64,000 bases of DNA from an uncultured Acidobacteriota bacterium (GCA_963740275.1 CAVUDT010000002.1:227418-291417); one strand, 5' to 3'. Numbered from the stretch's first letter, positions 5,936 to 60,556 are shown. The notes: a model not told the origin generated them from the letters alone. Made by a program: numbers and translations.

Positions 5936-6723
5936 CCCGGCGCCGTCCTCGGCGAGTGGAGGATGCACATGCGTGGAGTGAATCGCGGTGCCGGGCTGGC
6001 TGCGATCGTAGCGCACGAATCTTTAGGTTCGTTTGCACGGCGTCTCTCCGCGCCGGCGACCTGCGGCCTGAATCTGATCACCCATTCGCTTCGGTCTGCG
6101 TGAGGTCCGTCCTCGGCGCGTCCGTTCCTCCGCATGAGACTTTTCTCTGGATTCAGAGTTGGCCGCGGGGAAGCGGATGCCACCTGGATGATCGAGCGCT
6201 AGACCGTCTTTCAGTTGCATCTGGTTGGCCGACGTGCGGCGGGTCCATGCCGCGCCTCCGCCGGTGGGATCGCCTCCGGACCGTTTTTCGAGCTGTCGCC
6301 GCGCGCTGTCCGCATTGCGCCGCGGTCCCGCCATGGACTCGCCGCAGACCGCCGGGGGTCGGGAGCGCGGCGGCGGAGGCACGTCAGGTCCCCGGCGCGA
6401 TGCGTCCAGCCCGCTGCTGCCCCGGGGTCTGTGACGGGGGCAGTCCCGAAAAATGCGCCGCAGGCGTCCCCATCCGGCGCGGGTGATTCGCCGCCGACGC
6501 GGCGGATCCCCCGAGCGCTGACCCTGATCATCGCCCAGCGTCGGGCCAGCCCCAGCCGCGACGGCAGCGTCAGGCACGCGCCGGAGGAGCATTTTTCCGG
6601 GCGTAGGACGAGGCGACGGGGAGCTGATGTGGCTCCGCCGCAGCGCGGTGCGCGGCACCCACGCGTCGGCAACTGCGGCGAGTCGACGGCGCGCATTGGG
6701 CGATCGGGTCGCTACAACGTTAG

Positions 6724-28693: not shown

Positions 28694-28835
28694 CAGCTTC
28701 CAGCTTCCAGCTGTCAGCTTCAATCTCAACTCCCAACTCCCAACTCCCAATCTCCAATTCGCGATCCCCAATCCGCAGTCCCCAATCCGCAGTCCCCAAT
28801 CCCCATCCCCCATTCCCGACAGCAATCCCCCACCC
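28694..28835. repeat. composite heptamer-periodic repeat, family 2: (CAGCTTC)n then (ACTCCCA / ATCCCCA / ATCCGCA)n, ~20 units, starting right after the desaturase stop
   Basis: cagcttccagcttccagctgtcagcttcaatctcaactcccaactcccaactcccaatctccaattcgcgatccccaatccgcagtccccaatccgcagtccccaatccccatccccc. Confidence 0.65.
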
Positions 28836-30587: not shown

Positions 30588-30610
30588 GGTTCCAGGTTCA
30601 GGTTCTAGGG
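30588..30610. repeat. heptamer tandem repeat, family 1, right after the dynamin stop
   Basis: ggttccaggttcaggttctaggg. Confidence 0.5.
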
Positions 30611-30882
30611 CAGTGCCGGGTGGTGACTTTCTACAAGAGGCCAGGAGTTCAAGAGGCCGTTTTTGAAAGAGTTTTCCTGATCTTCTGAGCTCCTGTTGAA
30701 GGATACCGAAGTCGCTGAACCCGGAACCGAGTGGCCTGTCGCGGCTGATTCAGTAGTGGCAGAAACAGAAGCACCGCTGAGCGCGCTGAGGGCGCAGAGA
30801 AGAACCGCCAGAAGAATCCTCTGCGCCGCTCTGCGGCCTTGCGGTGAGGGCTTTGTCGAGGGACTGATTCATCGAGGACGAG
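30605..30882 (-). pseudogene. decayed paralog of the small secreted protein (start codon out of frame after 3 single-nt indels)
   Basis: The signal-peptide frame ...GRRAAQRILLAVLLCALSALSGASVSA... has no start codon. The ATG-containing frame terminates after 40 aa. Confidence 0.35.
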
Positions 30883-31158
30883 CTACTGGCCCGACCGGAA
30901 CCAGGGACGTCCCGGGTGGTGGAGCGACAGAGGCCAGGAGTTCAAGAGGTCGTTTTTGAAAGAGTTTCCTGACTGCGATCTCCTGTTGAGGGCTGCGAAG
31001 TCTGAACCCGGAACCGAGTGGCCTGTCGCGGCTGATTCAGTAGTGGCAGAAACAGAAGCACCGCTGAGCGCGCCGAGGGCGCAGAGAAGAACCGCCAGAA
31101 GAATCCTCTGCGCCGCTCTGCGGCCTGCGGTGAGGTTTTGTCGAGGGTACTGATTCAT
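30883..31158 (-). CDS. small secreted protein, 91 aa, with a signal peptide
   Basis: MNQYPRQNLTAGRRAAQRILLAVLLCALGALSGASVSA|TTESAATGHS... The antisense + strand ORFs 30696-30959/30956-31153 lack such features. Confidence 0.5.
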   Translation of the reverse strand: MNQYPRQNLTAGRRAAQRILLAVLLCALGALSGASVSATTESAATGHSVPGSDFAALNRRSQSGNSFKNDLLNSWPLSLHHPGRPWFRSGQ

Positions 31159-31182
31159 CGAGGACGAGCCACTGGACCCGAA

Positions 31183-31207
31183 GAACCCGGAACCCGGAAC
31201 CTGGAAG
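31183..31207. repeat. heptamer tandem repeat, family 1 (reverse orientation), between flotillin and the small secreted-protein gene
   Basis: gaacccggaacccggaacctggaag. Confidence 0.5.
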
Positions 31208-31210
31208 CGA

Positions 31211-35265: not shown

Positions 35266-35330
35266 CCCATGCCCCATCCCCCATTCCCCATCCCCGATTC
35301 CCCGACTCCCCATCCCCCCGACCCCGATTG
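35266..35330. repeat. heptamer tandem repeat, family 2 (CCCCATC/CCCCATT/CCCGATT...), in the divergent promoter region
   Basis: cccatgccccatcccccattccccatccccgattccccgactccccatccccccgaccccgattg. Confidence 0.6.
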
Positions 35331-35364: not shown

Positions 35365-35698
35365 ATGGAACCGCTCCACGGACTGCTGGACATGCTGGTG
35401 CTGCAAACGCTGATCCTCGGGCCGTTGCACGGGTACGGCATTGCCAAGTCCATCCACGACAGGTCCGATGAAGCCCTGGCGATCGAGTTCGGTTCACTCT
35501 ATCCGGCGCTGAAGCGCCTCGAGCTCAAGGGCTGGATCGCGTCGAAGTGGGACCTGTCCGAGCACAACCGGCGGGCCAAGTACCTATCGGCTCACGCCGG
35601 CAGGCAGAAAAAAGCTTCGGCAAGAGCAGTCAGACTGGCAGCATTTCGCCTCGGCCATCACCCGGGTCATGAAGATCGTACCGGAGGGCCAGTCATGA
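35365..35698 (+). CDS. PadR-family transcriptional regulator; 1-nt frame shift near 35588
   Basis: LDMLVLQTLILGPLHGYGIAKSI...GSLYPALKRLELKGWI...NRRAKY|YRLTPAGRKKLRQEQSDWQHF... The stop overlaps the permease start (ATGA). Confidence 0.7.
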
Positions 35699-44090: not shown

Positions 44091-46949
44091 ATGCGCATTC
44101 GGCAGCAGCTTCTGTTCGCATTCACCGCCGTGGCGCTCGCCTGCAGTGCCGGCGTGGTCGGCGCCCGGCAGCAGGCCGTGCCGGCGGCGCCCGTCACCTC
44201 GACTGCCGCAACCGCGGCGCTCGACCAGCCGGTGCCGCTCGACCCGGCGATCACCGCCGGCCGGTTCGAGAACGGTCTTCGTTACTTCATTCGCAAGACC
44301 CGGCGTCCGGAACAGCGTGCCGAACTGAGGCTGGTCGTCGATGTCGGCTCGATCGTCGAAGAAGACGACCAGCGCGGGCTGGCGCACTTCGTCGAGCACA
44401 TGGCCTTCAACGGCACGAAGAACTTTCCCAAGCAGGAGACGGTGACCTTTCTCGAATCGCTGGGCATGCGGTTCGGCCCGAGCATCAATGCGTCCACCAG
44501 CTTCGACGAGACCGTCTACATGCTGCAGGTGCCGACGGAAAAGCCCGAGGTCCTGGACCGGGCCTTCCTGATCCTGGAGGACTGGGCGCACGGGGTGACG
44601 TTCGACCCGGCCGAGATCGACAAGGAGCGCGGCGTGATCCGGGAAGAGTGGCGCATCCGGCGCGGCGCCGGCGCCCGCATGCAGGACAAGCAGCTGCCGG
44701 TCATGCTGAAGGGCTCCCGCTACGCCGACCGCATCCCCATCGGCACGATGGCGGTGATCGACAACTTCAAGCACGAGCGGCTGACCCAGTTCTACCGGGA
44801 CTGGTACCGGCCGGATCTCATGACCGTCGTGGCGGTCGGGGACTTCGATCCACCCGCGGTCGAGAAGATGATCAAGGCCCACTTCGAGCCGATCCCGGCG
44901 GCAAAGACGCCCAGACCGCGTCCGAGCTATCCGGTGGCCGATCATCCGGGCACGCTCTACGCTATCGCCACCGACGCCGAGGCGCAGTCCGCCACGATCA
45001 ACGTCCAGAGCAAGATGCCGCTGCGCGATCCGCGCTCGGTCGGCGCCCAGCGCGGAGACATCGTCGAACGTCTCTTCAGCAGCATGCTCGGCGCTCGCTT
45101 CGCCGAGCTGGCGCAGAGGCCGGATGCGCCGTTTATCGCCGCCGGCGCCGGGCGCGGCCTTTTCGTCCGGACGAAGTCGTTGTCTACCCTGAGCGCGGTC
45201 GCCAAGGGGAACGCCATCGACAAGACGCTGGAGGTGCTGTTCACGGAAACAGAACGGGTGGCGCGGTTCGGGTTCACGCCGGGTGAGCTGGAACGCACGA
45301 AGTCGAACCTGCTGAACAGCTTCGAACGAGCGGTGAACGAGAGGGAAAATACCCTGGCTGCGTCGCTGGCCAACGAGCTGGTGCGGCACGTCACCGCCCG
45401 CGAACCGGTGCCGGGGATCGTGTATGAGACCGCGCTGTATCGGCGCTTTCTGCCGGAGATCACCCTGACGGAGGTGAACGCGCTCGCCCGCGACTGGGCT
45501 CCCGACCGCAGCCGGGTCATCACCGTCAGCGCCCCTGAGAAACCGGGGATTGCGGTCCCCGACGAGAAGGCGTTGGCGGCGGTGATCGCGTCGATTCCCG
45601 GCCGGGAGATCACCGCCTACGTCGATACCGTCAATTCCACGCCGCTGCTCGAGACGCTTCCCCCACCGGGCGCGGTCGTCAGCACCGACACGAAACCGGC
45701 TTTCGGCATCACCGAATGGAAGCTGGCGAACGGCGTCAAGGTGGTGCTCAAGCCGACCGACTTCAGGGCCGACGAGATCCTGTTCCGCGCGATCAGCTAC
45801 GGCGGTTCCTCGCAGGCCTCCGACGCCGACTTCGTGCCGGCCAGCAGCGCCGCGATGGTCATGGGCGCCGGCGGCATCGGCCAGTTCAGCCTGGTCGACG
45901 TCCGCAAGAAGCTGACGGGCAAGTCGGCCGGGGTCACGGCGTTCATCACCGACTACGAGGAGGGGCTGACCGGTAATTCGTCGAGGAAGGACCTGGAAAC
46001 GATGTTCCAGCTGCTTCACCTGCGCTTCACCCAGCCGCGCGCGGACCCCAATGCGTTCCGGATCATGCAGGTGCAGATGAAATCCCAGCTGCCGCTGCAG
46101 CGCGGCAACCCGGCATTTCTCTTCGCCGAGGCCCTGACCGCGGCCCTGCGCGGGAACCACCTGCGGTCGAGACTCGGCACCATGGAGCAGGTCGAGCAGA
46201 TGAACCTCGAGAAGTCGCTGGCGTTCTACAAGGACCGCTTTGGCGACGCCGGCGACTTCACCTTCGTGTTCGTCGGCAACTTCACCCTCGACGAGCTGAA
46301 GCCGCTGGTCGAGCGATATATCGGGTCGCTGCCGGCTACCGGCCGCAAGGAGACGTGGAAGGACACCGGCCAGCGCTACGCCCGCGGGGTGATCGAGAAG
46401 CGGGTGGAGAAGGGGCTGGAGCCGAAGAGCCAGGCGGCGATCGTCTTCACCGGTGACTTCAAGTACGTCCAGGAACAGCGGGTGGCGATCACCGCGCTCA
46501 ACGAGGTGCTCCAGGCGCGGCTCCACGAGACGCTGCGCGAGGATCTCGGCGGCACCTACGGGGTCACCTCGTCGGTGAACTACCTCCGCATTCCGGTGCC
46601 GGAGTACACGATCACCGTCAGTTTCAGCTGTGCCCCGGAACGCACCGAGGAGCTCGTCAAGGCGGTCTTCCAGCAGGTGGAGCGGTTGAAGGCCGAGGGG
46701 CCGGCGGAGACGCAGGTCACCGACGCCCGGGAAAAGCTGCTGCGCGACTACGAGACCAATCGGAAGCAGAACGGCTACTGGGTGACGCAGCTGGCAGGAC
46801 GATACCAGTCAGGGGAGCCGGTCGATTCGCTGTTCGGGATGTTGGAGCACTACCGGCAGATCACGCCGGCGATGATCCGCGATGCCGCCAGGCTGTACCT
46901 GAACCCCGCCAACCATGTGACGGTGACGCTGTTCCCGGGGATCAAATGA
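44091..46949 (+). CDS. secreted two-domain M16-family zinc metallopeptidase (insulinase/pitrilysin-like)
   Basis: Signal MRIRQQLLFAFTAVALACSAGVVGA. HxxEH box GLAHFVEHMAFNG. Second inactive M16 half. GGAGG SD before ATG 44091. Confidence 0.85.
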   Translation: MRIRQQLLFAFTAVALACSAGVVGARQQAVPAAPVTSTAATAALDQPVPLDPAITAGRFENGLRYFIRKTRRPEQRAELRLVVDVGSIVEEDDQRGLAHFVEHMAFNGTKNFPKQETVTFLESLGMRFGPSINASTSFDETVYMLQVPTEKPEVLDRAFLILEDWAHGVTFDPAEIDKERGVIREEWRIRRGAGARMQDKQLPVMLKGSRYADRIPIGTMAVIDNFKHERLTQFYRDWYRPDLMTVVAVGDFDPPAVEKMIKAHFEPIPAAKTPRPRPSYPVADHPGTLYAIATDAEAQSATINVQSKMPLRDPRSVGAQRGDIVERLFSSMLGARFAELAQRPDAPFIAAGAGRGLFVRTKSLSTLSAVAKGNAIDKTLEVLFTETERVARFGFTPGELERTKSNLLNSFERAVNERENTLAASLANELVRHVTAREPVPGIVYETALYRRFLPEITLTEVNALARDWAPDRSRVITVSAPEKPGIAVPDEKALAAVIASIPGREITAYVDTVNSTPLLETLPPPGAVVSTDTKPAFGITEWKLANGVKVVLKPTDFRADEILFRAISYGGSSQASDADFVPASSAAMVMGAGGIGQFSLVDVRKKLTGKSAGVTAFITDYEEGLTGNSSRKDLETMFQLLHLRFTQPRADPNAFRIMQVQMKSQLPLQRGNPAFLFAEALTAALRGNHLRSRLGTMEQVEQMNLEKSLAFYKDRFGDAGDFTFVFVGNFTLDELKPLVERYIGSLPATGRKETWKDTGQRYARGVIEKRVEKGLEPKSQAAIVFTGDFKYVQEQRVAITALNEVLQARLHETLREDLGGTYGVTSSVNYLRIPVPEYTITVSFSCAPERTEELVKAVFQQVERLKAEGPAETQVTDAREKLLRDYETNRKQNGYWVTQLAGRYQSGEPVDSLFGMLEHYRQITPAMIRDAARLYLNPANHVTVTLFPGIK

Positions 46950-47097
46950 TTGCGGATTGGGGATTGCGGATTGTTGACTGACGGATTGTAGATTGGGGAT
47001 TGTGGATTGATGGTCGAAGCGCTTGCAATCAACACTCGACAATCCCAATCCGCGATCCCTAATCCGTCGATCAGCAATCCGCGATCCCCAATCCGCA
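46949..47097. repeat. ~150-bp imperfect palindrome built from family-2 heptamers (GATTGCG/GATTGGG arm, centre AAGCGCTT, then CCCAATC/CCGCAATC arm) between convergent genes
   Basis: gattgcggattggggattgcggattg...gattggggattgtggattg | tcgaagcgcttgcaatc | caatcccaatccgcgatccctaatccg...caatccgcgatccccaatccgc. Confidence 0.7.
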
Positions 47098-47098
47098 C

Positions 47099-48496
47099 TC
47101 AAAGAGTTGGTGCCTGTGAGGCCCCCCGCGTCAGGAAGCGGCCGGCGCCTTTCTTGCCGACGAAGGTGTCGCCGTCGATCACCACCTGGCCGTTGCAGAT
47201 GACCATCGACGGCGATCCCTGCACGGTCCGGCCCTCGTAGGGGTTGTAGTCCACGTTCATGTGGAGGGTCTTCACCCCCAGCGTGGCGGAGCGGTTCGGA
47301 TCGAAGACCACCAGGTCGGCGTCGCTGCCGACCGCGATCGTTCCCTTGCGCGGGAACAGGCCGAACATCTTGGCCGGCGTGGTCGAACACAGCTCGACGA
47401 ACCGGTTCATCGTGATCCGCCCGGGGCGGACGCCGCCGTCGTGGACCAGCGTCAGCCGGGTCTCGATCCCGGGCGCGCCGTTCGGGATCTTGCTGAAGTC
47501 GTCTTTGCCGAGCGCCTTTTCCGCCATGCAGAACGGGCAATGGTCGGTCGAGATCACCTGCAGATCGTTCTTCGCCAGCCCCTTCCACAGCACGTCCTGG
47601 TGCCACTTCTCCCGCAGCGGTGGCGACATCACGTACTTCGAGCCTTCGAACCCCGGCTCCTCGTAGTTGTCGTACGACAGGAACAGGTACTGCGGGCAGG
47701 TCTCGGCGTAGGCCGGCAGGCCCATGTCGCGCGCCTGCCTGACCTTCTCGAGCGCATGCGCGGCCGAGAGATGGACGATGTAGATGGGGACGCCGGCCAT
47801 TTCCGCCAATGCGATCGCCCGGCCGGTGGCTTCTCCCTCGGCGGTCGGCGGACGGGTCAGGGCGTGATACTTCGGCGCCGTCTCGCCCTTGCGGAGCGCC
47901 TCCCGCACCAGCTCGTCGATCACCCCGCCGTTCTCGGCGTGCATGCAGACCAGCCCGCCGTTCTCGCCGGTGCGCCGCAACGCTCTGAAGATCGTCGCGT
48001 CGTCCACCATGAAGACGCCGGGGTAGGCCATGAACAGCTTGAAGCTGGTGATCCCTTCGTCGCGGACCATGCGGTCCATCTCGCCGAGCCCGGCGTCCTC
48101 CAGCTCGGTGATGATCATGTGGAAGCCGTAGTCGATCACCGCCTTGCCGTCGGCGCGCTGCCGCCAGTCGTCGAGCGCGTGCCTCATCGTCTGGCCGCGA
48201 TACTGGATCGCGAAGTCGACGATCGAGGTGGTGCCGCCGAACGCCGCCGCGATCGTGCCGGTCTCGAAGTCGTCGGCCGACGTGGCGCCGCCGAACGGCA
48301 TGTTCAGGTGGGTATGGACGTCGATGCCACCAGGGATCACGTACTGGCCCGTTGCGTCGATCGTCCGCTCCGCCTGGAAGCGGTGGGCCGGCAGGTCGCG
48401 GCCGATCGCCGCGATCGTGCCGTTTTCGCAGTACACGTCGGCGACATAGTCGTCCGACGCCGTGACGATGCGTCCGTTGGTGATGAGAAGCGACAC
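47099..48496 (-). CDS. dihydropyrimidinase / D-hydantoinase (cyclic amidohydrolase)
   Basis: GGIDVHTHLNMPF...; carboxylated-Lys region ITSFKLFMAY; ...VISTDHCPF... Confidence 0.85.
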   Translation of the reverse strand: MSLLITNGRIVTASDDYVADVYCENGTIAAIGRDLPAHRFQAERTIDATGQYVIPGGIDVHTHLNMPFGGATSADDFETGTIAAAFGGTTSIVDFAIQYRGQTMRHALDDWRQRADGKAVIDYGFHMIITELEDAGLGEMDRMVRDEGITSFKLFMAYPGVFMVDDATIFRALRRTGENGGLVCMHAENGGVIDELVREALRKGETAPKYHALTRPPTAEGEATGRAIALAEMAGVPIYIVHLSAAHALEKVRQARDMGLPAYAETCPQYLFLSYDNYEEPGFEGSKYVMSPPLREKWHQDVLWKGLAKNDLQVISTDHCPFCMAEKALGKDDFSKIPNGAPGIETRLTLVHDGGVRPGRITMNRFVELCSTTPAKMFGLFPRKGTIAVGSDADLVVFDPNRSATLGVKTLHMNVDYNPYEGRTVQGSPSMVICNGQVVIDGDTFVGKKGAGRFLTRGASQAPTL

Positions 48497-48497
48497 C

Positions 48498-48797
48498 TCA
48501 GGTCCTGGCGGCAGCGGGGGAGGCGTGCTCAGCCGAGGTCGGATCGAAGATGTTCTTCACTTCATCTATCCGGTTGGCGGGAAAGCCGCCTCGCGACGCA
48601 TGTTCCCGAATCATCTCTTCGTTGGGAGCGATGTAGATGCAATAGATCTTGTCGCCGGTGACGTAGCTGTGAACCCATTGGATCCGCGGACCGAGCGCGT
48701 TCAACACTTCATTCGACTTCTGAGCGACGCCGCGCAGCTGCTCGGCGGTGAACGCACCCGCTCCCGGAATCTCACGTTCGATCACGTACTTCGGCAT
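48498..48797 (-). CDS. DUF4242-family small protein
   Basis: MPKYVIEREIPGAG...IQWVHSYVTGDKIYCIYIAPNEEMIREHASRGGFPA. Confidence 0.6.
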   Translation of the reverse strand: MPKYVIEREIPGAGAFTAEQLRGVAQKSNEVLNALGPRIQWVHSYVTGDKIYCIYIAPNEEMIREHASRGGFPANRIDEVKNIFDPTSAEHASPAAART

Positions 48798-48806
48798 ACG
48801 GGCCTC

Positions 48807-50285
48807 CTAATAGAGATTTCCTGATCGCTTGCCGCCGGTGTAGTCGACGTAGACGACCTTCAGTTCGGTATAGAAGTCGATCGCCACGCTGCCCATCTCG
48901 CGGAGCCCGACGCCGGTCGCCTTCATGCCGCCGAAGGGGATGTGGGCCTCGCCGCCGACGGTCGGCGAGTTCACGTGGATGATTCCGGCCTCGAGCTCGT
49001 CGACGAAGTGGAACATCGAGGCAACATCGGTGGTGTAGATCGATGCCGACAGACCAAACCTGACCTCGTTGGCGATGCGCAGGGCGGTCTTCGCGTCTGC
49101 GGCACGGATGACCGAAAGGACCGGCCCGAAGATCTCTTCCTGCGCGATCCGCATGCCGGGATCGACGTGGTCGAAGATGGCCGGCGCCACGAAGTAGCCG
49201 CGGTCGCGTCCGCCGTCGCCGAGTCGCTCGCCGCCGCGGACCAGTTGTGCCCCCTCGCTCCTGCCGATGCCGACGTACTCGAGCACCGTTTCCAGCTGCT
49301 TGTCGTCCACCGACGGGCCGACGTTCGTCTTCGGGTCCATGCCGTTGCCGGTGACCAGCGAGGCCGCGCGCGCGTGCAGGCGCTCGACGAATTCGCTGGC
49401 GATCGAATCCGCGACCACCGCCCGGCTGGTGGCGGTGCAGCGCTGGCCGGTCGATCCGAACGCTCCCTGGATCGTGCTCTCGACCGCCAGCTCGAGATCC
49501 GCGTCGGCCAGCACCACGATCGGGTTCTTGCCCCCCATCTCGCACTGGCACTTGATGCCGCGGGCCGCCGCGGCGGAGTAGAGGCCGACGCCGACGTCAT
49601 TCGAGCCGGTGAACGACACCGCCTGGATCGCCGGATGCTTCACGATCGTGTCGCCGACCTCGCGTCCGCCGCCGTAGATCAGGTTCAGCACGCCTGGCGG
49701 CAGGCCGCATTCCTCGAAGATCTCGACGATCAACGTCGCGGTGAGCGGCGTCAGGCTCGCCGGCTTGAACACGATCGTATTGCCCGAGACCAGCGCCGGA
49801 GCGATCTTCCAGATCGGGATCGCGATCGGGAAGTTCCAGGGCGTGATGATCGCCACCGGGCCAACCGGCTGCTTGAGGGTGTAGCAGAAGTTGCTCGGCA
49901 GCTCGGACGGTATCGTCTCGCCGGTGATCCGGCGCGCCTGCCCGGCGAAGAACTCGACGACGTTGATCGCGCGCTGGACCTCGCCGCGGGACTCGCCGAT
50001 CGTCTTGCCCTCTTCGCGGGTCAGGGCTTCCGCCAGCTCCTGCTTGCGGTCCTCCATCCGCCGCTGGACCTTGAACAGGATCTGGCCGCGGACCGGCGCC
50101 GGCGTCCGGCGCCAGCCCTCGAACGCGCGGGCGGCGGCCTCGCACGCCTGCGCCGCCTCGGCCGCGGTCGAAGCCGGGGCCTCGGCTACGACCTCGGAGG
50201 CGTCGGCCGGGTTGTAATCGGGGATCATCTTCCCGCTCTGCGAGTCGGTCCATTGACCGGCGATGAAATTCTTCAGTGTGCGCAT
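48807..50285 (-). CDS. NAD(P)-dependent aldehyde dehydrogenase (semialdehyde dehydrogenase candidate in the pyrimidine/beta-alanine pathway)
   Basis: ...ITPWNFP...FTGS...; catalytic GQRCTA; glutamate box ...EEIFGPV... Confidence 0.85.
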
Positions 50286-50291
50286 CGGGAA

Positions 50292-50354
50292 CCTGAACGA
50301 AACTCAGAACTCAGAACTCAGCATCCAGAACCTGGAACCCAGAACCTAGAACCT
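50292..50354. repeat. heptamer tandem repeat, family 1 (reverse orientation, ~8 units), in the divergent promoter region
   Basis: aactcagaactcagaactcagcatccagaacctggaacccagaacctagaacctga. Confidence 0.6.
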
Positions 50355-50421
50355 GATGAGCCCCCCTGTCAAGGCAGCGAGTGCTAAGATGCCGGCTTCA
50401 ACCCCGCAAGGAGATCATCAA

Positions 50422-51555
50422 ATGGGCGCTGATTTGTCGGTCACATTCACCGGCCTGCGATTCCCGAACCCGTTCCTGTTGTCGTCGGCGCCGCCGACCG
50501 AATCCGACAGCAACATCATGCGTGCCTTCGACGCCGGATGGGGCGGCGTGGTCACCAAGACGATCGGCCTGCACCCGGTGACCAACGTCGCCGGACCCAA
50601 GACCAAGTTCCTGCGGACAGACCCGGCGACGACGCGGATGTCGATGCAGAAGCGACCGGGGAGCGCGCTCCACTCATCGTGGAACTGGGAGCTCATCTCC
50701 GACAAGACGATCGACTGGTGGCTGCCGAAGATCGAGCGCATCAAGGCGGCGCATCCCGACCGGATCCTGGTGGCGTCGATCATGGCCGGATCCGGCAGCG
50801 ACAAGGAGCTGCGGCACTGGCAGGAGCTGGCGGCGGGGTGCCAGGATGCCGGCGCCGACGCCTTCGAGCTCAACCTCTCGTGCCCGCACATGGACCGGCA
50901 AGACATGGGATCCAATGTCGGCAAGGATGCCGGCCTGATCTCCGTCGTCACCAAGGTCGTGAAGGAAGTCGCGCGGGTGCCGGTGTGGTGCAAGCTGACG
51001 CCGTCCACGACCGACATCGCCGCCGAGGCGCGCGCGTCGTTCGCCGCCGGCGCCGACGCGATCGTGTCGTCGAACACGTTCCCGTCGCTGCCGCCGATCG
51101 ACCCGGCGACGCTGGAGTTCGAGGTCAACGTCGACGGCTACGTGTCGAGCGGCGGTCTCGGCGGCCCGGCCATCCTGCCGCTCTCGCTCGCCAAGATGGC
51201 GCAGATGACGCAGGTCTTCCCCGATAAGGCCTTCTCCGGCATCGGCGGCGTCTCGGATTTCTCGCACGCGCTCAGTTTTTTCCTGCTCGGCTGCGGCACC
51301 GTCCAGGTCTGCACCGCCGCGATGCTCGACCATGCGATCGGTCCCGGCGTGATCAAGGGACTGAACGAGGGGCTGGCGGCGTTTCTCGAGGCGAACGCCG
51401 ACCGGGGCTGGAAGTCGGTCGACGACTTCCGCGGCCTCCGCCGCGACCGTGTCGTTCAGCACTCGAAGATCCGGCGGCCGGAGGGGAAGGAATACTTCGG
51501 TGGGCAGGATGCGCCGGAAGGCTACGCCGCGCCGTCAGAGGTAGCGGGCCGCTGA
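50422..51555 (+). CDS. dihydroorotate/dihydropyrimidine dehydrogenase-family flavoprotein (PreA-like catalytic subunit candidate)
   Basis: LRFPNPFLLSSAPPTES...GWGGVVTKTI...ELNLSCPHM...CKLTP...VSSNT...; AAGGAG SD 8 nt before ATG 50422. Confidence 0.75.
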   Translation: MGADLSVTFTGLRFPNPFLLSSAPPTESDSNIMRAFDAGWGGVVTKTIGLHPVTNVAGPKTKFLRTDPATTRMSMQKRPGSALHSSWNWELISDKTIDWWLPKIERIKAAHPDRILVASIMAGSGSDKELRHWQELAAGCQDAGADAFELNLSCPHMDRQDMGSNVGKDAGLISVVTKVVKEVARVPVWCKLTPSTTDIAAEARASFAAGADAIVSSNTFPSLPPIDPATLEFEVNVDGYVSSGGLGGPAILPLSLAKMAQMTQVFPDKAFSGIGGVSDFSHALSFFLLGCGTVQVCTAAMLDHAIGPGVIKGLNEGLAAFLEANADRGWKSVDDFRGLRRDRVVQHSKIRRPEGKEYFGGQDAPEGYAAPSEVAGR

Positions 51556-51567
51556 CGGCATGGCAAA

Positions 51568-51627
51568 GGGAAATGGCAGATGGTAGAAAGCGGCTAACAG
51601 TCGCCCGTCTACCATCTACCATTTCCC
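51568..51627. terminator. 20-bp-stem hairpin between convergent genes (candidate bidirectional terminator, no clear U-tract)
   Basis: gggaaatggcagatggtaga-N20-tctaccatctaccatttccc (one mismatch). Confidence 0.35.
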
Positions 51628-51638
51628 ATCACCATTAC

Positions 51639-52190
51639 TTACTTGATCGTCCAGAGATAGACGTTGCGGCCGTCGACGTCGATCGTCTTTTCCGGCGGCC
51701 ACTGCTCGCCCATGCTGAAACTCTGTGACACCACACGCGTGCCTGGCTTCAGCTCTTTCTGAAGTTTCGGCATCAGCTTGATGTTGAGCGACTGCAGCAG
51801 GTAGAGGGTGACCACCGTGGCGTCCTTGATGTCGGCCTCGAACAGGTCTCCCTGCCGGATCTCGACCTTGTCGGAGACCCCCATCTTCTGGGCGCGCTCG
51901 GTGGCTTCCTTGACGCGCTGCGGGTCGATGTCGATCCCGACGGCGCGCGCGCCGTACTTCTGTGCCGCCGTCGCGACGATGACGCCGTCGCCACAGCCGA
52001 GGTCGTAGACCACATCGGTCGGCTTGACGTCGGCCAGCTTCAGCATGGCGTCGACGACCGCGGGAGGTGTCGGCACCCAGTGAATGTCGGGCCGCCGCAG
52101 CGGCGCCTGGGTCTGCGCCTGCTGCGCCGCAATCGGCAGAACGGAGACCACCGCCGCCAGAAGGATCGCCGCAATCACTCGAAATCTCAT
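51639..52190 (-). CDS. class I SAM-dependent methyltransferase with an N-terminal signal peptide
   Basis: MRFRVIAAILLAAVVSVLPIAAQQ then motif I VVYDLGCGDGVIV. Confidence 0.7.
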   Translation of the reverse strand: MRFRVIAAILLAAVVSVLPIAAQQAQTQAPLRRPDIHWVPTPPAVVDAMLKLADVKPTDVVYDLGCGDGVIVATAAQKYGARAVGIDIDPQRVKEATERAQKMGVSDKVEIRQGDLFEADIKDATVVTLYLLQSLNIKLMPKLQKELKPGTRVVSQSFSMGEQWPPEKTIDVDGRNVYLWTIK

Positions 52191-52192
52191 CA

Positions 52193-52288
52193 GTTCAGCT
52201 CCTAGTCAAGCTGTCAGCTCTCAGCCCTCAGCTATCAGCAAATCCTCAAACACCAATCACCGATCCGCAGTCCCCATCCCCCATCCCC
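52193..52288. repeat. composite heptamer-periodic repeat, family 2 (CAGCTNN units then CACCAAT/CCGCAGT/CCCCATC units)
   Basis: cagttcagctcctagtcaagctgtcagctctcagccctcagctatcagcaaatcctcaaacaccaatcaccgatccgcagtccccatcccccatcccc. Confidence 0.6.
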
Positions 52289-52861
52289 TCAGTAACCCAT
52301 TTCCCGCTGAATCCCTCTGACTATACGTTCGAGCTCTTCGACCAGCTTACCGCCGCCGGCATGCCGGAAGGCGCGCACCAGCCCTTCGTAGTAGGCGATC
52401 ACGTCGTCGGCGGGCGCGTTGAACCGGTCCCAGACCTCCTCGCCGGTGTTCCGCAGGTCCCGCAGGATCGCGTAGGAATTGTGCACCTTGTCGGCCGCCG
52501 CCACTCGCAGGCTGGGGGCAGGAAGCGCACGGGCGTGTTCGATGTAGTCGCGCTTGCGATCGATCCAGGGACGCTTGGGCGTTTCCCACGAGTCGGTGCA
52601 GTCTTCGACGATGCGGGCGACCGGCTCGCCGAAGCGGGCGCGGATCTCCTCGAGCCGCGGGCGCCCGCCATGATCCTCGGCGGCGTCGTGCAGCAGCGCG
52701 CCAATCGCTTCGTCCTCGGTGCCGCCGTCGTCGATCACGATCGACGCGACACCCAACAGGTGACCGACGTACGGGGAGCCGTTGCCTTTTCGCCGCTGCT
52801 GGCGATGCACGTCGTGCGTGTATTTCAGGGCGTCATCGAACCGGGCGGTGAGCTCCGTCAT
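52289..52861 (-). CDS. HD-domain metal-dependent phosphohydrolase
   Basis: ...YVGHLLGVA...LLHDAAEDHGG... Confidence 0.7.
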   Translation of the reverse strand: MTELTARFDDALKYTHDVHRQQRRKGNGSPYVGHLLGVASIVIDDGGTEDEAIGALLHDAAEDHGGRPRLEEIRARFGEPVARIVEDCTDSWETPKRPWIDRKRDYIEHARALPAPSLRVAAADKVHNSYAILRDLRNTGEEVWDRFNAPADDVIAYYEGLVRAFRHAGGGKLVEELERIVRGIQREMGY

Positions 52862-52925
52862 CGCGCCTCACTCTCTCGGCCACTATTCTAGGTCACGCTA
52901 GTATCTGGGCAGCACCGACCGCGGA

Positions 52926-55548
52926 TTGTTTCGACTGGATGGAGCGGACGGACGGGTTTCGCTGCGGGCCGTCGACATCCAGCTCCCTCGCGAATATCCA
53001 GAGCAACGGGTGATCGCCGATGTATTGGAGGATGCCGAGGGCTCGCTGTGGATCGCCGCGCCCAGTGGCTTATATCGCCGAAGGCCGGACGGCCGATCCG
53101 ATCGGTACACGCGAGCCGACGGCCTGCCGAGCGATTTCCTTCAAGACCTGCTCGAGGACCGTGCGGGCCGGCTGTGGGTCGGCACCCGGCTTGGCGGGTT
53201 CTTTCGGTTTCAGGCTCGCCCGGCGGGGGGCCGCCCGCTCATCGACCAGGCTTTCACCTATCTTCCCGAGGATGAATATGGCCTGCAGACGTCCTGGGTG
53301 TTCCAGCTCTTCGAGACATCCGACCGGCGGTTGTTGCTTGCGACCGCCCGTGGGCTGGTGGAGTTCTCTACGGATGCGGCCCGACCGCAGCGCTTCCGCA
53401 ACTACACGGCGCGGAACGGGCTGAGCGATCACAACATCACGGCCATCGCCGAAGATTCCGGCGGCAACGTGTGGCTCGGCACGAGCACCGCGGGCGCGAT
53501 GAAGTTGACGCGAAGCGGCTTCACGTCCTACAACGACCTCGACGGAATCGCGTCCGTGAATGCGATCTTCGAAGATCGCGCCGGGCACGTCTGCTTCCGC
53601 GGTACGTCGTTCGACGTCCGTTCCAGCGTCTTCGCGCATGCCAGAAAGGATCTCAATCGCGCGCCGGATCCTCTGATCAAGCCGCAGCTTGGATGTCTGG
53701 ACGGTCAGCGGGTCAACTGGTTCAAGCCGTCGGCGGTCAACGATCTCGGCTGGGTCATCGAGCGGGTCACGCTCCAGAGCCGCAGTGGCGACTGGTGGGT
53801 CGGCACCGGGGAGGGGCTCTACCGCTTCCCGCCGTCCGCCGATTTCGCACAGCTCGCAACCGCACGACCGGCAGCCGTCTATACGGTGAAGGCCGGCCTG
53901 GCCGGCCCGCAGATCTACCGGCTGTTCGAAGACTCCAGAGGGAACGTCTGGATCTCGACCACATCGCCGACCGCAAGCGGGCTGGCGCGGTGGGAACCAG
54001 GGAGTCAGCGCATCACCAGTCTGGCGGCCCGGCCGGACCTCGCCGCTCTCGCGGACGACCGGCCGGCGCGATCCTTCGCCGAGGACGCGGCCGGGAGCAT
54101 CTGGATCGGTTTTGACAGCGAGCTGGTGCGCTACAAAGAGGGCCGGTTCGACATCTTCGATTCGGACGACGGGCTGCCGCCCGGCGCGATCAGCGACATC
54201 CACCCCGACCGCGCCGGACGGATCTGGTTCGCGTCTTCGCAGAGCGGACTCGTGCTGGTCAGCAACCCGGGTGAAGACCGTCCTGCTTTCATCAGTTACA
54301 CGACCGCCCACGGCCTGTCGAGCAACAACACCGAGGTGATCAGCGAGGATCGCCGGGGCCGGATCTATCTCGGAGGCGGGCGCGGCCTGGACCGGTTCGA
54401 CCCTGCGAGCGGCGTGGTCAAACACTTCACGACCGCCGATGGTCTGCCATCCGGGCTCTTTCGCACCGCCTTTCACGACCGGGCCGGCGTGCTCTGGCTC
54501 GGCATGACCGGTGGCCTTGCGCGGCTCCACCAGGCGTCGGAAGAGGTGCAGCCACCCCCGCTCGTGTTGATCAGCGCTCTGCGCTTGCGAGGCGTACCGC
54601 AAGCGATCTCTCCGCTGGGCGAACGACGCCTGGTGTATCCGGCCTTCGGGGCGGACGAGAATCAAATGCAGATCGACTTCACCGGGCTGAACTCGCCGGG
54701 AGAGGTTCTGCGTTACCAGTACCCGGTTGGGAGGCAGCGACGAGGATTGGAGTGTCCTCTCGGAGCAACGAAGTGTGACCTACGCCAGCCTGTCGCCTGG
54801 GCGGTACACGTTCGCCGTCCGCGCAATGAACTCCGACGGCGTCGTGAGCTCGGCCCCGGCCGAAGTGATCTTCGCGATCATGCCCCCGATCTGGCAGCGC
54901 CCGTATTTCATCGCCTTGCTCGCCCTCGCCTGCGGGGCGCTGGCCTACGCGGCCTACCGTTACCGGGTCGCGAGGCTGCTCGAGATCGCCGACATGCGCA
55001 CGCGCATCGCCACGGATCTCCATGACGACATCGGCGCCAATCTGACCCGGATCGCACTGCTAACCCAGGTCGTGGGCCACGGCCGCCACGACGATGGGCC
55101 GGTGAGCTCGATCGCCCGGATCGCCCGCGAATCAGTTGACTCGATGCGCGACATCGTCTGGGCCATCAACCCCGGGCGTGAGAGCCTGGTGGATCTGACC
55201 CGCCGCATGCGCCAGCACGCCGACGAGATCTTCACCTTGCGCGAGATCGAGCTGCACTTCAGCGCGCCAGGACCGGCCGACAACATCAAGCTCGGGGTCG
55301 ACGTTCGCCGCGATCTCCTGCTGATCTTCAAGGAAGCCGTGAGCAACGTCGCTCGTCACGCCGGCTGCAGGAGTGTCCGCATCGATCTGCAGCATCGCCG
55401 CGGACGCCTGACGCTGACGGTCAGCGACGACGGGACCGGCTTCGACACCTCGATCGAGACCGACGGCCAGGGGCTGACCAGCATACGGCGGCGGGCCGCC
55501 AGGCTGCAGGGTCAGGTCGCGATCACCTCTACTTCTTCGGGGTACTGA
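52926..55548 (+). CDS. sensor histidine kinase with a ~690-aa beta-propeller (Reg_prop repeats) plus Y_Y_Y sensor region, one TM, and HisKA_3/HATPase_c; lacks an N-terminal signal/TM; frame shift near 54722
   Basis: Repeated ...G.LW.GT..GL blades. Y_Y_Y RLGGSDEDWSVL...SPGRYTFAVRA. TM PYFIALLALACGALAYAAY. H-box TDLHDDIGANLTRIAL. ATPase ...TVSDDGTGFD...GQGLTSIRRR. TTG start with a stop immediately upstream. Confidence 0.65.
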
Positions 55549-55570
55549 CGGTCTCGGTGAATCTGCCGAC

Positions 55571-56209
55571 ATGACTTCGATCAAGGTCGTGTTGATCGAG
55601 GACCTGCGTGAAGTGCGTGACGGCCTCGCCGCCCTGATCAACGGTGCAGAGGGTTTCCAGTGTGCCGGCAGCTACCGGACGATGGAGGACGCTCTCAAGG
55701 CGCTGAATGCACAGCCGCCCGACGTGATCCTGACCGACATCGGGTTGCCGGGCATGAACGGGATCGACGGCACCCGTCTTCTCCATGATCGCTTTCCGCA
55801 GGTGCCGATTCTGGCAATCACCGTGTATGACGACGACGAGAGCGTGTTCAAGGCTATCTGCGCCGGCGCGTCAGGTTATCTGTTGAAGAACACGGCGCCG
55901 GATCGCCTGTTGGAGTCTTTGAGAGAAGTGGTCAATGGCGGCGCGCCGATGTCGCCCGACATCGCGCGGCGGGTGATCACCCTGTTCCGCAAGGTTCGTC
56001 CACCGGAGCGCGCCACCTACCGGCTCACGCCTCAGGAAACGGAACTGCTGAAGCTGATGGTGGAGGGGCATCACTACAAGACCGCAGCGGGCGTGATGGG
56101 GATCTCCGTCAATACCGTCTCGTTCCACTTGAAACACATCTACGAAAAGCTGCAGGTGCATTCCAAGACCGAAGCCGTCGCCAAGGCGCTCCGCGAACAC
56201 CTGATCTAG
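55571..56209 (+). CDS. NarL/FixJ-family response regulator (REC + LuxR-type HTH)
   Basis: VVLIEDLREVRDG...DVILTDIGLPGMNG...; C-terminal LTPQETELLKLMVEGHHYKTAAGVMGISVNTVSFHLKHIYEKLQV. Confidence 0.9.
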   Translation: MTSIKVVLIEDLREVRDGLAALINGAEGFQCAGSYRTMEDALKALNAQPPDVILTDIGLPGMNGIDGTRLLHDRFPQVPILAITVYDDDESVFKAICAGASGYLLKNTAPDRLLESLREVVNGGAPMSPDIARRVITLFRKVRPPERATYRLTPQETELLKLMVEGHHYKTAAGVMGISVNTVSFHLKHIYEKLQVHSKTEAVAKALREHLI

Positions 56210-56228
56210 TCCCGCTATCCGACCCACC

Positions 56229-56243
56229 TACGTATCTACGTAG
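56229..56243. promoter_or_regulatory. tandem/palindromic TACGTAT-C-TACGTAG heptamers downstream of the NarL-type regulator gene; candidate LuxR-family binding site
   Basis: tacgtatctacgtag (TACGTA is self-complementary), in an AT-richer patch. Confidence 0.3.
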
Positions 56244-56305
56244 TTATGCCGCGCCATTTCGCGGTGCTACACCTATCTCTTCATCTGGGGTGAGGAGGTA
56301 CGGCA

Positions 56306-56371
56306 GTGGCGAGGCGTGTGGTGATCGGCGCGGTCATGCTGGTGCTGTCGTCGGCACTCTCCGGACGGTGA
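56306..56371 (+). CDS. candidate 21-aa hydrophobic small ORF upstream of the lipoprotein gene
   Basis: GAGGAGG SD 6 nt before GTG; VARRVVIGAVMLVLSSALSGR*. Confidence 0.2.
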   Translation: MARRVVIGAVMLVLSSALSGR

Positions 56372-56393
56372 TCAGGAACAGCCAGGAGATCAA

Positions 56394-57065
56394 ATGCGAC
56401 TCACGCACTTCAACCGGATTGTCATGACGGTTGTCGGCCTGGGGCTGGCGGCGTGCTCGGGCGACCCGGCGACCTCACCGGGCCCAGCCCCGCCTCTGCC
56501 CGTCCTGACGCACATTCTGCCGCTGAGTGGACCGACCACCGGCGGGACAGCCGCAACGATAAGCGGCAGCGGATTCCTGGCGGGCGCCACGGTCAGGTTC
56601 GCCGACACCGCGGCCCAGGTCACATCGATCAGCAGCAACGCAATCGTGATCGTCACTCCGCCGCACCCTTTCGGGTTCGCAGACGTCGTGGTGATAAACC
56701 CGGATGGCCATCGGGGGATGCTGTCACGTGGGTTCTCGTTTGTCCTGGAAGATCCCAGCCTGCCCGGAGATGGGGCCCTCTACAAGCTCACCGCCAGCCC
56801 GGAGATCGTGGCGCCAGGGCGTGAACTGACCCTCACCTGGAACGGACCACGCCCTACCCATACCGATTGGGTAGGTCTGTTCAAGGTTGGGGACCCGAAT
56901 ACGGCCCAGGTCTGGGCCAACTGGGCCAACAACTCGAACAAGTTCACGATTCCGGCACCTGCGTCGAGCGGCGAATACGAGTTTCGCTATCTGCCGAACG
57001 AGGGGATCGTCGATATCGCGAGGAGCAATCCCGTCAAGGTGGTTGTTCCGTCCGCGAACCGCTGA
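56394..57065 (+). CDS. lipoprotein with an IPT/TIG domain
   Basis: Lipobox LGLAAC|SG. VLTHILPLSGPTTGGTAATISGSGFLAGATVRF...IVIVTPP... AGGAG SD. Confidence 0.7.
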   Translation: MRLTHFNRIVMTVVGLGLAACSGDPATSPGPAPPLPVLTHILPLSGPTTGGTAATISGSGFLAGATVRFADTAAQVTSISSNAIVIVTPPHPFGFADVVVINPDGHRGMLSRGFSFVLEDPSLPGDGALYKLTASPEIVAPGRELTLTWNGPRPTHTDWVGLFKVGDPNTAQVWANWANNSNKFTIPAPASSGEYEFRYLPNEGIVDIARSNPVKVVVPSANR

Positions 57066-57154
57066 TTCGTCAGTGCGGCATGCACGGACGTGAGCCGTAC
57101 AATCAGCAGCGGTGGACGAGCTGAGCGACTCCGGTATTCGAGTCACTCCAGACG

Positions 57155-57610
57155 ATGGGCATTGATCACGATGCCTACGAGCATCCGCCTGTCTTCACCA
57201 CCGAGGACGTCGAGAAATACTGGCGCGGCATACCGGCGACCCCGGTCAAGAACCTGTTCCTGCGTAACAAGAAGGGGAACCGGCATTACTTGGTGATCGT
57301 CGGCGTCGACAAGCGGGTGGACCTGCACCAGCTCGTCAAGGTCATCGGTGACGACAGGCTCAGCTTCGGTTCGGCCGAGCGGCTGATGGAGAAACTCGGC
57401 CTGACCCCAGGGTCGGTCTCCCCGTTCGGCCTGCTGCACGAGGGGAGCGCCGATGTGCGGGTGATCATCGACGAGGATCTTCGCCAGGCCGAGCGGCTGA
57501 TCTTTCATCCGAACATCAACACCGCCAGCGTGACGATCTCGTTCGCGGACTTCGAGAGGTTCCTCGCGTCCAGAGGCAACGCCGTACGTTTCCTGACGAT
57601 GGGATCGTGA
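57155..57610 (+). CDS. YbaK/ProX-type aminoacyl-tRNA deacylase
   Basis: ...VKNLFLRNKKGNRHYLVIV...SFGSAERLMEKLGLTPGSVSPFGLL... Confidence 0.75.
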   Translation: MGIDHDAYEHPPVFTTEDVEKYWRGIPATPVKNLFLRNKKGNRHYLVIVGVDKRVDLHQLVKVIGDDRLSFGSAERLMEKLGLTPGSVSPFGLLHEGSADVRVIIDEDLRQAERLIFHPNINTASVTISFADFERFLASRGNAVRFLTMGS

Positions 57611-57623
57611 GGTGAACGGCAGA

Positions 57624-57765
57624 CATTGCGGATCAGGGGATTGCGGATTGCCGATCGACGGATCTTTGATCGTGGATTGGAGCGCCGAATCAGCATCCCA
57701 ATCAAGAATCCAAAATCCCCAATCCGTCAATCAGCAGTCCGCAATCCACAATCCGCAATCCGCAA
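57624..57765. repeat. ~140-bp imperfect palindrome of family-2 heptamers between convergent ProX and typA genes
   Basis: cattgcggatcaggggattgcggattgcc...gtggattgg | agcgccgaatcagc | atcccaatcaagaatccaaaatccccaatccgtcaatc...caatccacaatccgcaatccgcaac. Confidence 0.7.
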
Positions 57766-59607
<1,842 letters not shown>

Positions 59608-59664
59608 CTCTACAGTGTACCTGCAATGCTGACCCCTCGACAGGCTCGGGGCTGCGGGTTTATT

Positions 59665-59732
59665 GATGAATGCTGAAGTAAAGGGGAAATGCTGAAGTAT
59701 CTGAGTCCTTGCCCCTTATTTCAGCATTCAAC
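59665..59732 (-). terminator. ~18-bp-stem imperfect hairpin between the OMP gene and typA (candidate terminator or typA 5'-UTR structure)
   Basis: gaatgctgaagtaaagggg...ccccttatttcagcattc. Confidence 0.3.
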
Positions 59733-59757
59733 ATTCAGCCCTCAGCCTTGCGGAGGG

Positions 59758-60318
59758 TCATCTCTTGATCCAGAACGTAAGGCCCCCGTAGAACCGCCAG
59801 TGGTCCGGGGCCAGGTCGTTGACCTGGAACCGCCGCAGGTCCGCGCGGGCGAGCAGCCGGTCGCCGAGCGGGACCTTGACGCCGCCGCCGAGGTGCCACC
59901 CGACCTCCGTGCTCGACTGCTGTTCCACGGGGAGGAGTACCTCGGCGTCAGCGTCCAGGTTGGATCGTTCCCACCCAATCCCGGCGACCGCGTAAGGCGT
60001 GACTTGCGGAACATCGAAGTGGAAGATGGCGCTGGCGCTCATGTTGGTCAGCGACCAGTCGAGATCCACGGTGTCACCCGCGACGTCGAACACCTGTCCG
60101 ACCTCGAATTCGAAGCCGATGTTCTTGGTCCAGTCGTAACCGACGGCCCCGCCGATGCCCAGGCTGCTGCCGAGGTCGTCCGACGTGCCGAATGAGCCAC
60201 TCAGGAACGGTGTAACGGTGATAGTCCTGGGCTCGGCGACCGATTGCGCCTGCGCTGCCGCCGGAACGAGCGTGACTGCCGCCAGTGCGGCGCCGGAAAT
60301 AAGTGAACGAATCAACAA
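59758..60318 (-). CDS. small outer-membrane beta-barrel protein (OmpW/OmpA-like porin family), TTG start
   Basis: GGAGGA SD then TTG. Signal LLIRSLISGAALAAVTLVPAAAQAQS. Alternating hydrophobic beta strands. C-terminal F/W (TFWIKR). Confidence 0.6.
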   Translation of the reverse strand: MLIRSLISGAALAAVTLVPAAAQAQSVAEPRTITVTPFLSGSFGTSDDLGSSLGIGGAVGYDWTKNIGFEFEVGQVFDVAGDTVDLDWSLTNMSASAIFHFDVPQVTPYAVAGIGWERSNLDADAEVLLPVEQQSSTEVGWHLGGGVKVPLGDRLLARADLRRFQVNDLAPDHWRFYGGLTFWIKR

Positions 60319-60556
60319 TGCGAATCCTCCTGATGTGATAGGTGTCGTAGCCCTAAGGCCAAGCCTCACGGGACTTTAGACGTAGCTGGCGTGCAAATCG
60401 GCTGCCTCCGGCGATTTCCGCCTCGCACTCAACCTTCCCGGAGCCACCTGCGTCATATTGCTGACACGGATGACTGCGACCCGAGAGGAGTGGGCGTCAT
60501 GGCCCGCGGCAACAGCCAAAGCCAGGCGGGCCCCTCCAGACGCTGCGGAACGAGCG

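Follow-up and report, generated by a model that had tools for sequence, protein, structure and literature searches.

Tandem repeats of seven-base units near gene ends have been described from several bacterial groups. The closest of these to the locus analysed here are the GGGAATC repeats of Xanthomonas and the GGGGA(C/T)T repeats of Nostoc PCC 7120 (Rehm et al. 2015, PMC4692102). Approximately 185 repeats are found per Xanthomonas genome, 89-93% of which are intergenic at a mean distance of 28 nt from the nearest ORF, and 70-75 paired convergent arrays per genome have stem-loop potential (PMC4692102). Near stop codons they are found on the coding strand and near start codons on the non-coding strand, in both cases at no more than 50 bp; they are transcribed, differ in length from species to species and adopt G-quadruplex structures in vitro, and no settled function was assigned to them (PMC4692102). 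Heptamer repeats near gene ends are also known from Beggiatoaceae (PMC4679880), from Geobacter metallireducens (PMC2700814) and from Nostoc recF/recO, with speculative functions. Among them, the TAACTGA repeats of Beggiatoaceae, Cyanobacteria and Bacteroidetes are located just upstream of start codons and include one indirect repeat among 170 sets (MacGregor 2015, PMC4679880). In the account of Mrazek, Guo and Shah (2007) given in PMC4679880, heptanucleotides outnumber all other classes of long SSR in many prokaryotes, 7 nt dominates among the non-triplet periods, occurrence across taxa is sporadic, and polymerase slippage is proposed as the source.

The window analysed here, a 64-kb stretch of acidobacterial DNA with a GC content of approximately 67%, contains an element (e2, 57625-57765) that belongs to the described class of intergenic heptamer repeats (Rehm et al. 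2015). e2 consists of a G-rich GNGGATT heptamer array, a 9-nt loop and a complementary C-rich array. As in the Xanthomonas and Nostoc repeats (PMC4692102), the units are tandem, 7 nt long and built around a GG..AT core, and the element is intergenic, 0 and 14 nt from two stop codons and thus within 50 bp of both. It is G-rich on the coding strand after stops, arrays of the same clade are G-rich on the non-coding strand before starts, and both e2 and a sister element (e1, 46949-47097) are paired in convergent orientation and capable of forming stem-loops; variability of length and sequence from one close species to another is a further shared trait. The described repeats have GGGNATC or GGGGA(C/T)T units; in e1 and e2 each arm contains one or two copies of GGGGATT, and most units are GCGGATT or GTGGATT, in which the GGAT core is kept and the G-tract is broken. 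With GCGGATT dominant in e2, the potential to form G-quadruplexes (G4) is largely lost. Further differences from PMC4692102 are the acidobacterial host and the fixed order of unit variants (a 29-nt period with an octamer) common to the arms of e1 and e2, an order not described there. e2 resembles the cyanobacterial STRR and TAACTGA repeats (PMC4679880) in being a short intergenic array of tandem heptamers near gene ends, and the GGATTGN unit has a similarly patchy spread across phyla; its units differ from the direct, start-proximal TAACTGA repeats. The LSSR survey (Mrazek et al. 2007), as summarized in PMC4679880, concerns direct arrays, to which e1 and e2 add palindromic pairing, polarity relative to gene ends and paralogous composite arms.

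The sequence of positions 57624-57765 (142 bp) was checked and agreed with that quoted in an initial annotation, which had described a heptamer palindrome filling the convergent space between proX and typA. This description was borne out by the sequence, the unit parse, the predicted folds and the Pfam assignments of the flanking genes. The first of these genes (57155-57610, + strand) encodes a YbaK/ProX-type aminoacyl-tRNA editing domain protein (tRNA_edit, Pfam PF04073, E 1.6e-31), and the convergent gene (57766-59607, − strand) encodes a TypA/BipA GTPase (Pfam GTP_EFTU and BipA_C). e2 takes up nearly all of the 155-nt stop-to-stop gap. Its left arm begins 14 nt after the ProX TGA, and its right arm ends directly at the typA stop codon (CTA, 57766-57768), with 0 nt between them instead of the 1 nt given originally.

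The left arm (57625-57683, + strand) is G-rich and contains eight units of the GNGGATT type (written ATTGNGG), two of which are octamers: ATTGCGG, ATCAGGGG, ATTGCGG, ATTGCCG, ATCGACGG, ATCTTTG, ATCGTGG and ATTGGAG. The right arm (57693-57765, + strand), with which it pairs in the folds, is composed of C-rich CAATCCN units, the reverse complement of the left-arm family, and Tandem Repeats Finder (TRF) returned periods of 7, 14, 21 and 29 for it. Read as the reverse complement, its units are TTGCGG, ATTGCGG, ATTGTGG, ATTGCGG, ACTGCTG, ATTGACGG, ATTGGGG, ATTTTGG, ATTCTTG and ATTGGGATG. The non-repeat centre (57684-57692, no strand) forms the terminal hairpin loop in the minimum free energy (MFE) structure and does not align to the e1 spacer. 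The best ungapped inverted repeat in e2 extends over 41 nt with 78% complementarity. Across e1 and e2 the arms contain 8-10 units each, with a TRF period of 7/14. The annotation had also suggested testing whether arm length is always a multiple of 7; this did not hold, the unit parse giving lengths of 58-78 nt with 8-mers and 6-mers present.

e2 was confirmed as a real, non-random, hairpin-forming palindrome of 7-base repeats. The 13-mer GGATTGNGGATTG was matched 19 times in the window with at most one mismatch against an expected 0.20, and none of 200 shuffled sequences folded as well; the element is far beyond chance. By sliding autocorrelation, windows at threshold were obtained for period 7 (n = 18), period 14 (n = 44) and period 12 (n = 1) and for no other period. 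A CRISPR array was dismissed, given that repeat-spacer alternation is absent, the units are 7 nt long and the two halves are mutually complementary. The two ORFs crossing e2 (57612-57839 on the + strand, 57143-57730 on the − strand) were likewise rejected as genes; they overlap well-supported genes and are typical of spurious ORFs at 67% GC.

The sister element has a left arm at 46949-47013 (+ strand; G-rich, nine units), the first unit of which overlaps the TGA of an M16 peptidase gene, and a C-rich right arm at 47036-47097 (+ strand), which ends 1 nt before the stop codon of an amidohydrolase gene (ORF 47099-48496, − strand). In order to compare the elements, both strands of e1 and e2 were aligned. 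The four arms fell into register one to one and the spacers were unalignable, in agreement with the earlier observation that the architecture is shared, the arms are conserved and the spacer differs. All four arms follow the order ATTGCGG, ATTGgGG, ATyGCGG, AyTGyyG and the octamer AyyGACGG as unit 5, after which come three to four heptamers. This shared order of variant units produces the higher-order TRF period of 29 nt (7+7+7+8) found in both elements.

A 19-nt signature around the octamer was present in the four arms only and was absent from 1.36 Mb of other loci, a comparison set that includes 120 loci picked for GGATTGN arrays. When 200 loci were searched with a 37-mer (up to seven substitutions) and with the degenerate 19-nt signature, the composite arm was not recovered, and only generic (GCGGATT)n arrays were found. 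The alignment showed the arms of e1 and e2 to descend from one composite arm with a 29-nt period. The same unit order in all four, down to the octamer at unit 5, means that the two elements are paralogous copies of that arm as opposed to independent slippage products, and the annotation's two independent instances become two copies of one. The window holds these two full copies and two partial arrays. One partial array (28746-28817, − strand) is unpaired, is located in a co-directional gap and has the 17-mer GCGGATTGGGGATCGCG in common with an e1 arm; the other (52240-52288, − strand) is short and degenerate, with units CGGATCG, GGGACTG and GGGGATG on the − strand directly after the stop codon of an HD-domain gene. 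Together with large palindromes of the same unit in other genomes (L048, L108 and L109, below), they are further copies and relatives of the family.

Folding of e2 as RNA gave −68.9 kcal/mol for the + strand (z −5.8) and −83.6 kcal/mol for the − strand (z −8.2), with 0 of 200 shuffles as good in either case, and the whole gap is predicted to form a single long imperfect hairpin on either strand. The corresponding value for e1 was −98.9 kcal/mol (z −14.4). When the order of units was permuted in one arm, folds of −53 to −76 kcal/mol were still obtained, and the mirrored unit order contributed only z of approximately −4 (e1) and −2 (e2); hairpin energy is therefore due mostly to composition. Arm identity was 0.81 within e1 and 0.75 within e2, against 0.76-0.85 between elements, and this four-arm comparison yielded no sign of compensatory or concerted evolution between arms. 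With identity within an element not above that between elements (n = 4 arms), nothing points to maintenance of the pairing.

Canonical bidirectional terminators are short GC stems flanked by an A-tract and a U-tract that serve both convergent transcripts. e2 is likewise one hairpin for two convergent genes, but it has approximately 50 imperfect base pairs and the flanking tracts are absent. A scan of 46000-60500 (14.5 kb) placed no T-run or terminator-like site at e1 or e2, and no T or A runs flank either element (a GC stem with a U-tract after it and an A-tract before it being the canonical form). On these grounds e2 was rejected as a canonical intrinsic terminator. Comparison of the whole window with Rfam 15 gave no match at gathering threshold; for e2 there was only a sub-threshold resemblance to a miRNA hairpin (25 bits, 83 needed), and a known structured RNA family was discarded as well. 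Runs of three or more G number one in the left and two in the right arm of e2, and two and three in the corresponding arms of e1, where a canonical intramolecular G4 needs four, and a G-quadruplex reading of e2 was rejected on this count.

Among the genomes fetched, the only long DNA match to the window came from a Vicinamibacterales (Acidobacteriota) metagenome-assembled genome (MAG), at 74% identity over 4.2 kb. Conservation of e2 was examined in 80 soil-metagenome loci encoding TypA orthologues (protein identity 77-90%), which together with the window make up 546 kb of analysed DNA. Ten of these relatives share the convergent typA/proX synteny. Their gaps measure 3-127 nt, and the GGATTGN palindrome is found in none of the ten: in three the gap is 3-7 nt and hairpin-free, L121, L122 and L132 contain short GC hairpins, and one has a palindrome of different heptamers. 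In less close relatives, arrays were often observed right after the typA stop with the units CAGCTGA, CACGGAN, GGGGACT, GCTGGTG, GAACTGA, CAGGTGC and GGATTGA, some of them paired. Examples at the typA stop within L121-L200 are GCTGGTG in L160, GAACTGA/GAAGTGA in L167, CAGGTGC in L194 and GGATTGA in L197. Neither the ten syntenic relatives nor the less close typA loci have e2 at the orthologous junction. As arrays of differing units are found at the typA stop and e2 is absent, the site has been recurrently colonised, with neither sequence nor presence conserved. The comparison showed e2 to be a lineage-specific gain. The relatives that lack it have ProX identities of 60-76%, and a function of e2 in this lineage is compatible with absence at that distance. 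The functional class of element proposed in the annotation was not supported, given the ten syntenic relatives without the element, three of them with gaps of 3-7 nt, and the lack of maintained pairing.

Over the 546 kb, 57 of 81 period-7-type arrays were intergenic in DNA that is 88% coding, and most were within approximately 20 nt of a gene end. The typA loci alone contained 62 period-7 arrays with 49 distinct units, which indicates that the process behind them is not sequence-specific. An exact three-unit GGATTGN query, GGATTGNGGATTGNGGATTG, was found in at least 120 stretches of one-genome-per-species GTDB contigs. Hosts among the matches listed were Acidobacteriota (Vicinamibacteria, Blastocatellia, Pyrinomonadaceae, Thermoanaerobaculia and Terriglobales), Planctomycetota, Verrucomicrobiota, Gemmatimonadota, Chloroflexota, Bacteroidota, Cyanobacteria (Nostoc, Anabaena and Microcystis), Xanthomonas, Lysobacter and others. 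The same query was found in at least 120 IMG/VR viral contigs (L201-L320), with a median GC of 0.60 among the matches listed. Large G-arm-first GGATTGN palindromes with unrelated centres were present in other Vicinamibacterales MAGs (L048, L108 and L109). The one at 214-620 of L108 (Vicinamibacterales MAG JBMDXB010000155) is very large, with a G-rich part of approximately 180 nt (20 GGATTG cores), a spacer of approximately 90 nt and a C-rich part of more than 130 nt.

The paired arrays have a strong strand polarity. Among the matches listed, the G-rich arm came first in 25 of 25 paired GGATTGN arrays at genome loci and in 4 of 4 on IMG/VR viral contigs; for paired arrays of any unit across phyla the count was 64 of 68 (64:4, binomial p 6e-15). 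A rare palindrome with the C-rich arm first, CCAACTC…GGGAGTT, was noted in L185. Both e1 and e2 are G-arm first; at e2, the sense strand of either flanking gene carries the G-rich arm. For arrays beside stop codons the sense strand was G-rich in 22 and C-rich in 6, and beside start codons the ratio was 5:10 (Fisher p 0.007); in single arrays the G-rich strand runs 5'->3' away from the adjacent gene. The arrays in this clade are numerous, intergenic, built from many unrelated units and polar, the sense strand being G-rich downstream of stops and C-rich upstream of starts. Polarity of this strength is not predicted by plain neutral slippage, so either a selection filter or a polar mechanism is needed.

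Approximately 12 other heptamer unit types were found in the window, nearly all of them intergenic and abutting gene ends. They include AGGTTCC arrays at 27644 and 30587 with an inverse array at 31183, CAGCTTC, CAACTCC and CCCAATC arrays at 28694-28817, a CCCATCC array at 35266, AACTCAG and AGAACCT arrays at 50301-50355, an ATGGNAG palindrome at 51562-51636, AGCTCTC and CCCCATC arrays at 52209-52288 and a GCTGAAN array at 59650-59747. The link to convergent junctions drawn in the annotation did not survive this survey, in which single arrays of the e2 family and of the other units, approximately 12 in number, were also found where neighbouring genes are co-directional or divergent. The units of e2 are likewise seen in unpaired form and ahead of start codons. 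Among convergent gaps longer than 80 nt, in a tally that leaves out the 788-nt gap at 5936-6723, those of e1, e2 and 51556-51638 are taken up almost entirely by a heptamer palindrome, and that at 30689-31210 is bracketed by a distant AGGTTCC pair. A 220-nt convergent gap between two short, weakly called ORFs has no array, and the remaining convergent gaps in the window measure 5-57 nt.

Several of these arrays have individual features. The palindrome at 51562-51636 (ATGGNAG…CTNCCAT; −43 kcal/mol) has its G-rich arm first and fills the convergent gap between a dihydroorotate dehydrogenase (DHODH)-family gene and a methyltransferase gene. At 59650-59747, a 39-nt inverted repeat (79%) of GCTGAAN/TTCAGC heptamers, also with the G-rich arm first, lies at a co-directional junction, after the stop codon of an OMP beta-barrel gene and before the typA start. 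At 50301-50355, three AACTCAG units are followed by four of AGAACCT type that reach the ATG of the DHODH-family gene (50356), an arrangement resembling the start-codon-abutting TAACTGA repeats of Beggiatoaceae. The units CAGCTTC, CAACTCC, CCCAATC/CGCAGTC and CCCCATC follow one another at 28694-28817, as if arrays had been added serially, and fill most of a 165-nt gap between a fatty-acid desaturase gene and a dynamin-like GTPase gene. A tandem duplication of approximately 290 nt in two copies (30607-31180; 30715-30839 is 99% identical to 31002-31126) is flanked by the AGGTTCC array (30587-30609) that follows a dynamin-like GTPase ORF and by the inverse array (31183-31206) that follows a flotillin/SPFH stop, and each copy terminates in GAACCCGGAACC-like heptamers. 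The divergent gap upstream of a single-frame 1024-aa ORF (35365-38439) contains a CCCCATC/GGGGATG array (35266-35325); the ORF combines PadR (residues 12-82), MacB_PCD and FtsX domains and represents either a gene fusion or a read-through of two genes.

These observations were used to weigh what e2 might be. If it were a selected bidirectional terminator or insulator, the shared hairpin would stop read-through from both sides in a genome without U-tract terminators. Such a role would suit an element placed exactly between two stops with strong predicted folds on both strands, in a 14.5-kb region free of T-run terminators; the G-arm-first rule means that both transcripts meet the same hairpin, three convergent gaps of the window above 80 nt are palindrome-filled with a fourth bracketed, and small GC hairpins occupy the same junction in L121, L122 and L132. 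The stem, however, has no flanking U or A tract, three syntenic relatives make do with 3-7 nt and no hairpin, other convergent gaps in the window measure only 5-25 nt, the four arms drift independently and the same units are also found without a partner array and before start codons. Selection for termination is therefore regarded as unlikely. Still more doubtful is a non-autonomous mobile element of REPIN or MITE type, moved whole by a trans-acting transposase (e.g., a RAYT-type Y1 enzyme), of which the heptamers would be just the internal make-up. Its appeal lies in two extragenic copies with position-specific homologous arms and unrelated spacers, in a genome-specific 19-nt signature and in syntenic relatives that supply "empty sites". 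The arms act as long inverted repeats, yet no target-site duplication or conserved terminal motif was visible at the four ends of e1 and e2 (flanking bases …AAATG and …CACTCAA for e1, …GGCAGAC and CTATTCC… for e2), as a MITE would be expected to have. No transposase was detected among the 16 window ORFs scanned against Pfam (of approximately 53 predicted), those scanned being housekeeping genes; arm divergence of approximately 20% speaks against recent activity, and the inner part of the arms resembles a further slippage product (TRF period 29).

Polarity itself could be a signature of how palindromes are produced, as opposed to a selection filter, although we consider this very unlikely. In the form considered, and held to be equally improbable, G-rich heptamers would be added to both 3' ends of an intergenic double-strand break, healing it in a telomere-like manner; the adder would be a repeat-adding or slipping polymerase or a reverse transcriptase, with fill-in and joining to follow, a sequence of steps given the same slight credence. 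If true, break healing would explain why the arms start in the same register at the flanks, why they share a unit order with a template-like 29-nt period and why the centre is unrelated filler. Polarity in any case offers a handle for testing a translation or termination filter against a polar production mechanism. Two readings that assign a direct role to the repeat units carry the least credence. In one, the G-rich arm would form a DNA or RNA G4 that modulates transcription or replication: GGGGATT units are present in the arms, the position and polarity rules of e2 match those of the Rehm repeats, and the consensus repeats of Xanthomonas and Nostoc form G4 in vitro (PMC4692102). This is highly improbable for arms with one to three G3+ runs where four are needed and with GCGGATT dominant; moreover, the complementary arm only 10-30 nt away competes via a duplex of approximately 50 bp, and many other unit types of the same genome are not G-tract-rich. 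In the other, e2 would be a binding-site array for a sequence-specific protein, for example a nucleoid protein that binds DNA or an RNA-binding regulator that reads GGA at 7-nt intervals. GGA does recur in 7-nt phase, S1, Csp or CsrA have been speculated to bind TAACTGA repeats (PMC4679880), and a binding partner has likewise been speculated on for Nostoc, but no single protein could read 49 distinct units in 62 arrays of relatives and 12 unit types in the window, and e2 is not conserved at its orthologous site, which leaves little room for this explanation.

A dispensable repeat undergoing drift fits the evidence better than does a conserved functional module. With some reserve, we regard it as probable that e2 is a drifting copy, specific to this lineage, of a palindrome built from heptamer repeats, and that its hairpin in the 3' UTR is a by-product. 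Arrays of this kind would grow by replication slippage or by unequal exchange of units and blocks, and palindromes would arise through inverted duplication, or when an entire element is copied into a new gap. Arrays would then last only where coding sequence, ribosome-binding sites and operon expression are undisturbed, a survival filter that would also yield the polarity observed.

REP/BIME elements (REPINs) are extragenic imperfect palindromes of Enterobacteria and Pseudomonas that occur as tens to hundreds of nearly identical copies in a genome, often after stops or between convergent genes; they have units of 20-40 nt with no 7-nt periodicity, are tied to RAYT transposases and are transcribed into 3'-UTR hairpins that stabilise the upstream mRNA. 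e2 resembles them as an extragenic imperfect palindrome at gene 3' ends, and differs in arms of approximately 60-70 nt made of heptamers, shared with e1, and in having two copies within the 64-kb window. For a drifting repeat copy of this kind, the transcript of either gene would present a G/U-rich arm and then a C/A-rich arm, predicted to close each of the two mRNAs with an imperfect 3'-terminal hairpin of approximately 50 bp. Its likeliest effect would be REP/BIME-like, a barrier to 3' exonucleases and to convergent read-through. Such an effect is probably a by-product and not the reason for which e2 exists; given that some relatives have almost no typA/proX gap, it must be dispensable.

For annotation, e2 is best treated as a 3'-UTR hairpin of repeat origin; labels such as gene, riboswitch or CRISPR-like array do not apply to it. 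In several large bacterial phyla, few unexplained repeats are as abundant as the intergenic heptamers. The present analysis adds Vicinamibacterales-type Acidobacteria to their hosts, extends the GGATTGN unit to at least a dozen phyla and to viral contigs, and confirms on independent data their strict strand polarity relative to gene ends. It further shows that heptamer palindromes can be paralogues of one another in which the higher-order arrangement of units is fixed.
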